From positions 15,642 to 79,641 of the IMG/VR virus record IMGVR_UViG_3300023174_007394: 64,000 bases of DNA; one strand, given 5' to 3'. A program made the position numbers and the translations under genes. The stretch comes from a virus. This document shows, piece after piece, positions 56,442 through 56,532 of this stretch. Below the pieces are notes generated by a model that saw nothing but the letters and a program-made list of their open reading frames with translations, had not been told where the DNA came from and did no database searches. Numbering within the stretch: position 1 is the stretch's first letter; the number at the start of each line of letters is the position of its first letter.

Positions 56442-56532
56442 CGGAGATAGGCGGAATTTAACCGGCCGGCACGTCCATGTTCCTTGTCTAGATCAAGTAC
56501 TGAGGATTGCTCTAACACTGAGCTATATCTCC
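56442..56532 (-). tRNA. Atypical tRNA-like RNA (91 nt), anticodon undetermined
   Basis: Acceptor GGAGATA/TATCTCC + G; D arm GCTC-AGTGTTA-GAGC; bulged T arm GGC(C)GG-TTAAATT-CCGCC; enlarged anticodon region. Confidence 0.6.

Follow-up and report, generated by a model that had tools for sequence, protein, structure and literature searches.

Several RNAs that do not decode borrow the shape of a tRNA, among them tmRNA, YrlA, viral tRNA-like structures and mascRNA. In mascRNA-type processing signals another stable RNA directly precedes the tRNA-like fold, and mascRNA serves MALAT1 as such a handle. Engineered tRNA scaffolds exchange the anticodon stem–loop for a cargo RNA and retain the processing and stability of the tRNA. 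The sarcin–ricin loop (SRL) of ribosomal RNA ends in a GAGA tetraloop, which is the target of ricin and sarcin and a contact of elongation factors. Y RNAs, which occur in phages too, carry the Ro60-recognition motif GNCGAA(N)G near the 5′ end and are encoded within about 4 kb of Ro60 on its strand (PMC4201824).

Here we describe a 91-nt tRNA-like gene next to the tmRNA gene of a T4-like phage from freshwater lakes. It belongs to a new, conserved phage family in which an rRNA-type sarcin–ricin module is grafted into the anticodon arm; neither Rfam 15 nor the searchable literature yielded a tRNA-like RNA with a sarcin–ricin motif in phages.

The locus and its predicted transcription unit

The window analysed here, a 64-kb stretch of DNA, is the final part of a 79.6-kb IMG/VR record that is about 26% complete (CheckV). 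Nearly all of its genes lie on the minus strand. A UvsX-like recombinase, gp46/47-like nuclease subunits, a DnaB-like helicase and a large terminase subunit mark the phage as T4-like, and it uses the standard genetic code, with an open-reading-frame coverage of 94% and TAG terminating 5 of 53 long frames.

A preliminary description had placed a tRNA mimic with an enlarged anticodon arm 10 nt downstream of tmRNA. Both the location and the coordinates of the element, on the minus strand, proved exact (Table 1); the gap amounts to 9–10 nt, with the Rfam tmRNA match ending at 56542. This match spans the full length of the Rfam model (positions 1–374), and ARAGORN did not call the tmRNA despite it. 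The 3′ end of the tmRNA reads ACCU rather than ACCA, so its maturation needs trimming and CCA repair. No SmpB gene was found in the 79.6-kb record, an absence that is weak evidence in a record 26% complete.

The intrinsic terminator follows the tRNA-like element rather than the tmRNA. On the other side, the tmRNA is preceded by GATATATA, a motif that is present 16 times in the window where 8.5 copies are expected and that lies on the gene strand at 12 of its sites. Because GATATATA lies upstream of the tmRNA and the terminator follows the element, the two genes are predicted to form a single two-RNA transcription unit. Further GATATATA sites include 52346–52353 and 49045–49052, and the few that were compared with the starts of open reading frames are situated shortly before a gene.

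The RNA unit is immediately preceded by a gene for a calcineurin-type metallophosphoesterase (57005–57802); L006 and L007, which carry relatives of this metallophosphatase (about 70% identity), had neither tmRNA nor tRNA. Four kilobases downstream of the unit, 51499–52323 encodes a DEDDh (RNase T-like) exonuclease of a family that PHROGs names DNA polymerase exonuclease subunit. No viral relatives were found for the 219-amino-acid open reading frame downstream of the element. The gap after the TROVE gene (62580–63071) is filled by a plus-strand open reading frame of 163 amino acids in a neighbourhood of otherwise minus-strand genes, and the gap yielded no Y RNA.

Table 1 Features of the tmRNA and tRNA-like genes, in window coordinates
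Feature	Position	Strand	Evidence or remark
GATATATA motif, candidate phage promoter of the two-RNA unit	56999–57006	−	24–31 nt upstream of tmRNA 5′ end
tmRNA gene, G3:U70 in acceptor stem	56542–56975	−	Rfam tmRNA 75.5 bits, sequence
tRNA-like RNA gene, whole (91 nt)	56442–56532	−	Rfam tRNA, family model R1, alignment A1
Acceptor stem, 5′ strand (partner 56443–56449)	56526–56532	−	Seven Watson–Crick pairs, GGAGAUA/UAUCUCC
D arm GCUC-AGUGUUA-GAGC, U at position 19	56509–56523	−	Perfect 4-bp stem, 7-nt loop
Proximal anticodon-stem remnant UCC (partner GGA 56474–56476)	56504–56506	−	Invariant, five distinct sequences
Sarcin–ricin-type loop, 5′ strand: U (pairs with A 56478), CAGUA with bulged G	56498–56503	−	Invariant
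Distal hairpin CUUG-AUCUAGA-CAAG, supposed anticodon stem–loop	56483–56497	−	Basal pairs invariant, tip variable
Sarcin–ricin-type loop, 3′ strand: GAAC, A (pairs with U 56503), bulged U	56477–56482	−	Invariant
Variable loop GUGCC, 5 nt; G46/C48 equivalents	56468–56472	−	GUG(C/A)C in all members
T arm GG(C)CGG-UUAAAUU-CCGCC, A at position 56	56450–56467	−	One bulged nucleotide in stem
Discriminator G	56442	−	CCA not encoded
Intrinsic terminator, 7-bp stem and U tract	56418–56435	−	6 nt past discriminator

The tRNA body of the element

Scored against the Rfam tRNA family (RF00005), the element reached 38.0 bits, passing the gathering score of 29, with an E-value of 1.2e-6 in one search and of 5.7e-8 for the whole 79.6-kb record; the match is far above chance. 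ARAGORN called no gene at 56442–56532, and no Rfam family other than tRNA was found for the element. Perfect acceptor and D stems, a G discriminator, the lack of an encoded CCA, the T loop TTAAATT and a spacing of about 40 nt between the D and T arms had all been listed from inspection of the letters, and every item was verified, the spacing from D stem to T stem being 41 nt. U8 and A9 are present, and the core tertiary set is complete (U8, A14, G15:C48, G18, 19:56, G46, U54, U55 and A58). The features on which RNase P and 3′ processing rely, namely a 7-bp acceptor stem, the T arm and the elbow, are likewise present and covary.

Relatives in T4-like jumbo phages

A pattern that spanned the D arm and the start of the anticodon stem recovered homologs in eight viral contigs (L086, L088, L089, L098, L099, L111, L115 and L118), which represent four distinct sequences (L086, L088, L089 and L098 type). 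Patterns anchored on the tmRNA and a first arm pattern gave no relevant matches, and a final pattern scan returned chance matches only, in cellular genomes and in the viral contigs L122 and L123. Matches to the D-loop/T-loop signature were dropped as a family, being a mix of unrelated tRNAs. No match to the element was found in deposited phage genomes, where the only matches of the region were T arms of crAss-like tmRNAs.

The relatives come from T4-like jumbo phages with records of about 234 kb that are 77–87% complete. Protein identity between these phages and the window phage is 43% for the large terminase subunit and 46% for UvsX; protein relatives closer to the window phage exist (P0001–P0004). 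In the relatives, the element sits within arrays of 17–28 tRNA genes, between tRNA-Phe and tRNA-Trp, and it is single-copy in the most complete relative record (G003). None of their records holds a tmRNA above the Rfam cut-off. Thus, the link to tmRNA is particular to the window phage and not a property of the family.

We aligned the window copy with the four distinct homologs (alignment A1, five sequences). All 23 modelled pairs are paired in all five sequences (100%). Both partners were substituted at five pairs: 1:72, 4:69 and 7:66 of the acceptor stem, 52:62 of the T stem and 19:56 at the elbow. The elbow pair is U:A in the window copy and G:C in the relatives, so its odd D loop and odd T loop amount to one compensated change. 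When the 3′ partners were slid by 1–3 columns as a control, no double-sided pair changes remained. All double changes separate the window copy from the other clade, so that the count stands for few independent events among five distinct sequences. Outside the hairpin tip, the window copy and L098 differ at 12 of 82 positions, with 10 differences in compensated pairs, one at the T-stem bulge, one at the discriminator and no uncompensated stem change. The D stem is invariant across the five sequences, all members share an identical 34-nt block, which takes in the proximal stem together with the loop flanks and variable loop, and two irregularities are conserved as well: the A27 × C43 mismatch and the T-stem bulge, which is C in the window copy and A in the relatives.

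Orthologous tRNA genes are generally well conserved, and part of this conservation is expected of any live tRNA-like gene. We conclude that acceptor stem, D arm, variable loop, T arm and elbow form a class-I tRNA core under purifying selection. The covariation that the preliminary description had proposed to look for in relatives, five compensated pairs among five distinct sequences, supports its view of the element as a tRNA mimic whose anticodon arm is enlarged, as opposed to an ordinary tRNA. A family covariance model built from the five distinct sequences (R1) scored the window copy at 108.7 bits and the members overall at 107–117 bits, compared with at most 54 bits for ordinary tRNAs in 731 kb of phage tRNA arrays; the L098 copy reached 36.3 bits with the Rfam tRNA model. 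R1 can be used by others to search for more members.

A sarcin–ricin-type sequence motif in the anticodon arm

In the Rfam tRNA alignment, 27 nt of the arm take the place of 9 model positions. Of two folds offered for the arm in the preliminary description, the one with a CUUG/CAAG stem and the 7-nt loop AUCUAGA is the minimum-free-energy fold, in which this hairpin is preceded by a UCC/GGA helix and an internal loop. The other, TCCT/AGGA with an 18-nt loop, is excluded because it competes with the conserved CAAG strand for the same A–G bases; the relatives keep the inner hairpin, including its closing C–G pair. The folding energy of the element is unremarkable (z −1.2 to −1.7). At the base of the inner hairpin, the pairs C–G, U–A and U–A are fixed in all five sequences, and the tip varies: the window copy has 4 bp and the 7-nt loop, three relatives have 5 bp, a bulged C and the tetraloop A(G/U/A)UU, and L088 has 9 AU-rich pairs with a 5-nt loop.

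Between the proximal stem and this hairpin lie the strands UCAGUA and GAACAU, which are unpaired in the energy folding and invariant in the family. They can be read as a U–A pair, CAGUA opposite GAAC and a bulged U, that is, a 5 × 4 internal loop. This loop contains A·G, U·A with the bulged G, A·A and C·C, closed by Watson–Crick U–A and C–G pairs, and these pair combinations have been reported for the sarcin–ricin motif in solved structures (PMC8450098). Moreover, CUCAGUAC and GGAAC are identical to the stretches that flank the GAGA tetraloop in a eukaryotic SRL mimic oligonucleotide (PMC9486812, Table 1 therein). The E. coli 23S version differs slightly from the flanks of the element, and the neighbouring UCC/GGA helix is common to the element and E. 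coli helix 95. Judged by its strands, UCAGUA/GAACAU is a sarcin–ricin (bulged-G, S-turn) motif with a predicted three-dimensional fold to match.

From position 31 onward, the anticodon stem–loop is replaced by a U–A pair, the invariant 5 × 4 loop and a free hairpin. The 5-bp stem, 7-nt loop, U33 and conserved anticodon of a decoding tRNA do not occur together in the element. Excess length, a loop that is not conserved and the bulge in the T stem make the arm unable to decode. Members vary in their discriminator and first acceptor pair, which argues against a fixed aminoacylation identity.

Metatranscriptome contigs

In two lake metatranscriptomes, near-identical contigs cover the tmRNA body (56585–56965). 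They end near the tmRNA 5′ end and contigs from DNA runs extend further upstream, which is a weak hint at transcription. One lake metatranscriptome also contained a 325-nt contig with a depth of 128 over 56453–56513 (T loop, arm and D stem), which differs from the window by six substitutions and by indels that all fall within the hairpin tip. This RNA-library contig is a relative's copy, and such contigs cannot prove transcription. Among the RNA contigs, none covered the exact window copy or bridged it to the tmRNA, and the uncovered parts are uninformative.

Other tRNA-like genes in phage arrays

Just upstream of the element, the arrays of its relatives contain one or two more genes of tRNA-like form, uncalled by any tool. 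In L098, positions 10491–10572 encode an 82-nt RNA with a 6-bp acceptor stem, a good T arm and irregular D and anticodon regions, and the stretch of about 175 nt at 10315–10490 ends in a T arm and the 3′ strand of an acceptor stem. The same uncalled places are tRNA-like in L086, L089, L099, L111, L115 and L118, and L088 is without the 82-nt gene. In each of the arrays of these jumbo phages, ARAGORN also reports a 90-nt 'tRNA-???' whose anticodon has four bases, ttga (L098:9517–9606; also L088, L099, L111, L115 and L118).

Three tRNAs elsewhere (L103:2632–2707, L094:12900–12974 and L113:11913–11990) share the 5′ half of the element, the variable loop GUGAC and the bulged T stem, and those of L103 and L113 share the A27 × C43 mismatch. 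Their anticodon loops are, respectively, an ochre-type UUA in a 7-nt loop with U37, 6 nt long, and 6 or 8 nt long. These tRNAs may be sister forms of the element family. In L113, a tmRNA lies 2.3 kb from the look-alike.

Between tRNA-Trp and tRNA-Leu, L014 (238–322; also L010 and L012) has a tRNA-like gene with the D and T loops of the element. Its arms are about 35 nt apart, and a UUUA tetraloop caps a 6-bp hairpin in this interval; the sarcin–ricin pattern is absent from the gene. ARAGORN called 27 tRNAs in the L014 array, and tRNA-Met was not among them. The combination of D arm and T loop given by GCUCAGUGUUAGAGC ... GGUUAAAUUCC was absent from 185,579 prokaryote species, represented by one genome each, and occurred in a handful of viral and metagenome contigs, mostly with non-standard anticodon loops (5, 6 or at least 8 nt). 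One archaeal metagenome contig, L016, encodes an intron-bearing tRNA-Met(CAU) with D and T loops of the U19:A56 type (2792–2889). Its 26-nt intron pairs with the anticodon. A gene for a tRNA splicing endonuclease is 2 kb away, and two for aminoacyl-tRNA synthetases are close by. L016 is a genuine archaeal case to set against the element.

Alternative readings of the element

The preliminary description had left several readings side by side. An amber suppressor, or another decoding tRNA that uses CUA in a 7-nt loop, was suggested by the window loop AUCUAGA, with its U33, CUA and purine at position 37. Among the five distinct sequences, however, CUA and the 7-nt loop are restricted to the window copy, the relatives having tetraloops or a longer hairpin instead. 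The arm exceeds the usual length by about 8 layers (at least 12 stacked layers where a tRNA has 5), a bulge interrupts the T stem and the genome uses the standard code, so that amber reading is refuted as a family trait and scarcely credible for the element itself. A precursor from which a small intron of a new type is removed, or which is cut and religated by phage RNA repair enzymes, would also end as a decoding tRNA. The conserved flanks around a variable inner hairpin resemble introns, and RNA repair enzymes are common in T4-like phages (PMC7824862). Against such a precursor, no excision yields a 5-bp stem and a 7-nt loop bearing U33: an A would fall at position 33 and a U·U at 31:39, leaving no plausible mature anticodon stem. 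On hand inspection, no 4-bp helix was flanked by the staggered 3-nt bulges of a bulge–helix–bulge, and neither a splicing endonuclease nor RtcB was found in the 79.6-kb record (26% complete). An intron-containing tRNA, one of the earlier suggestions, is thus very unlikely. A decaying pseudo-tRNA with a chance insertion would account for the ARAGORN miss, the A27 × C43 mismatch, the T-stem bulge and the weak folding z-score, but not for five compensated pairs and zero uncompensated stem changes across phages of 43–46% protein identity, nor for the conservation of the mismatch and the bulge themselves. Lack of conservation had been named as the mark of such a pseudogene; the element is conserved across phages, and decay is hardly tenable.

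The reading as a Y-RNA-like partner of the phage Ro60 protein had been prompted by a TROVE (Ro60) fragment 6.5 kb upstream of the element and on its strand (63068–64000). Bacterial and phage Y RNAs are known to have tRNA-like domains (PMC4201824), and the TROVE gene has no YrlA candidate adjoining it. Other results speak against this partnership. The YrlA covariance model (RF02553) gave 20.1 bits where 69 are required, and even this match is a hybrid that bridges the T arm of the tmRNA to the D arm of the element. YrlA requires the order T arm, acceptor-like stem–loop, D arm, and the element is unpermuted. GNCGAA is absent from the 91 nt, TROVE occurs in none of the five element-carrying records, three of which are 77–87% complete, and the distance of 6.5 kb exceeds the rule of 4 kb (PMC4201824). 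With model, motif, order, distance and co-occurrence all against it, a Ro60 partner is a very remote prospect. Somewhat less remote, and still improbable, is a handle that acts in cis only, in which the tRNA shape recruits RNase P, frees the tmRNA 3′ end and protects the end of the transcript, with no role in trans. The element begins 9 nt past a tmRNA without a ready CCA, the terminator comes after it, and the features that covary are those that RNase P uses (7-bp acceptor stem, T arm and elbow). Yet the relatives' copies lie in arrays of at least 25 real tRNAs without tmRNA, where a special handle would be superfluous, and a handle does not require a sarcin–ricin loop that is invariant across phages of 43–46% protein identity. 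A decoy or inhibitor of a host anticodon nuclease, or of another tRNA-targeting defence toxin, would be a sub-case of the reading that we prefer, and we regard it as conceivable rather than likely. The tRNA-like body could bind the enzyme, with the cleavable anticodon loop gone and a rigid arm that could not be cut. Against this, we know of no nuclease that recognises a sarcin–ricin motif in a tRNA arm, and the decoy would have to compete with the entire tRNA pool. Phage tRNAs are reported to evade anticodon nucleases through loop changes (PMC10264068), and the look-alikes in L103, L094 and L113, with their abnormal 6–8-nt anticodon loops, fit an arms race as mild circumstantial evidence.

Proposed role

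The reading that we prefer, with a probability of roughly 55% on the strength of the sequence comparisons, is that the element is a functional, non-decoding tRNA-like RNA, a 'tRNA scaffold' that would display a sarcin–ricin docking module. The tmRNA and the element would be transcribed together, from one promoter to one terminator. RNase P would cut the 5′ end of the element and in doing so also free the 3′ trailer of the tmRNA, a release that cannot be what the family is for, because the relatives are without tmRNA. The 3′ end would then be trimmed and CCA added, as in a tRNA that lacks an encoded CCA. In the mature RNA, the tRNA body would supply stability and the L shape, the long arm, with at least 12 stacked layers instead of 5 and no anticodon, would bar it from decoding, and the sarcin–ricin module would be the working surface that docks a protein or another RNA.

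Such an RNA would most likely act, as decoy or adaptor, on a factor that deals with tRNAs or ribosomes in the conflict between phage and host. A more specific and tentative version, which we hold to be rather unlikely as it stands, is a tRNA-scaffolded mimic of the ribosomal sarcin–ricin loop that T4-like jumbo phages would have matured by the host's tRNA machinery and use to capture a factor whose usual docking place is that rRNA site or tRNA; candidates for that factor would be a translational GTPase, a ribosomal protein or a defence toxin that cleaves ribosomes or tRNAs. If it were true, the mimic would define a new class of decoy RNAs through which phages act on translation.

Although tRNA finders missed the gene, deeply diverged jumbo phages have retained it through compensating changes, which points to a working RNA among the phage tRNA genes. 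It suggests that phages use the tRNA body to carry another kind of RNA module, in this case a protein-docking motif of ribosomal type, and the identity of its partner could reveal a new point of conflict between phages and host translation or tRNA surveillance.

Comparison with known systems

With ordinary phage tRNAs of the tRNA-Ile(GAU) type, the element shares the cloverleaf, a near-identical 5′ half (UAGCUCAGUGGUAGAGCAAUCC in the relatives), a 5-nt variable loop, the setting in tRNA arrays and a score beyond the Rfam tRNA threshold. It differs in the sarcin–ricin-type loop and free hairpin that replace the anticodon stem–loop, in the T-stem bulge and the 27:43 mismatch, and in being missed by ARAGORN. 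With the sarcin–ricin loop of rRNA (helix 95 of 23S/28S rRNA), it has the CAGUA/GAAC strands and the closing C–G pair in common. By contrast, where the rRNA has a GAGA tetraloop the element has a helix and a variable hairpin, and its motif is mounted on a tRNA body and not in rRNA.

Among RNAs that do not decode, YrlA (RF02553) resembles the element in combining a tRNA-like module with a long protein-binding stem at the position of the anticodon stem. The element is unpermuted and ends at its acceptor stem, has no GNCGAA, fails the YrlA model and does not co-occur with Ro60. The tRNA-like domain of tmRNA is likewise an anticodon-less tRNA mimic in which a long helix replaces the anticodon stem; unlike it, the element has a full D arm and the normal cloverleaf order, with neither G3:U70 nor a message part. 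Finally, in contrast to engineered scaffolds and mascRNA, the element is natural and conserved in phages, and its cargo is a defined rRNA-type motif. The use of a tRNA body as a carrier is a trick that bioengineers invented independently.
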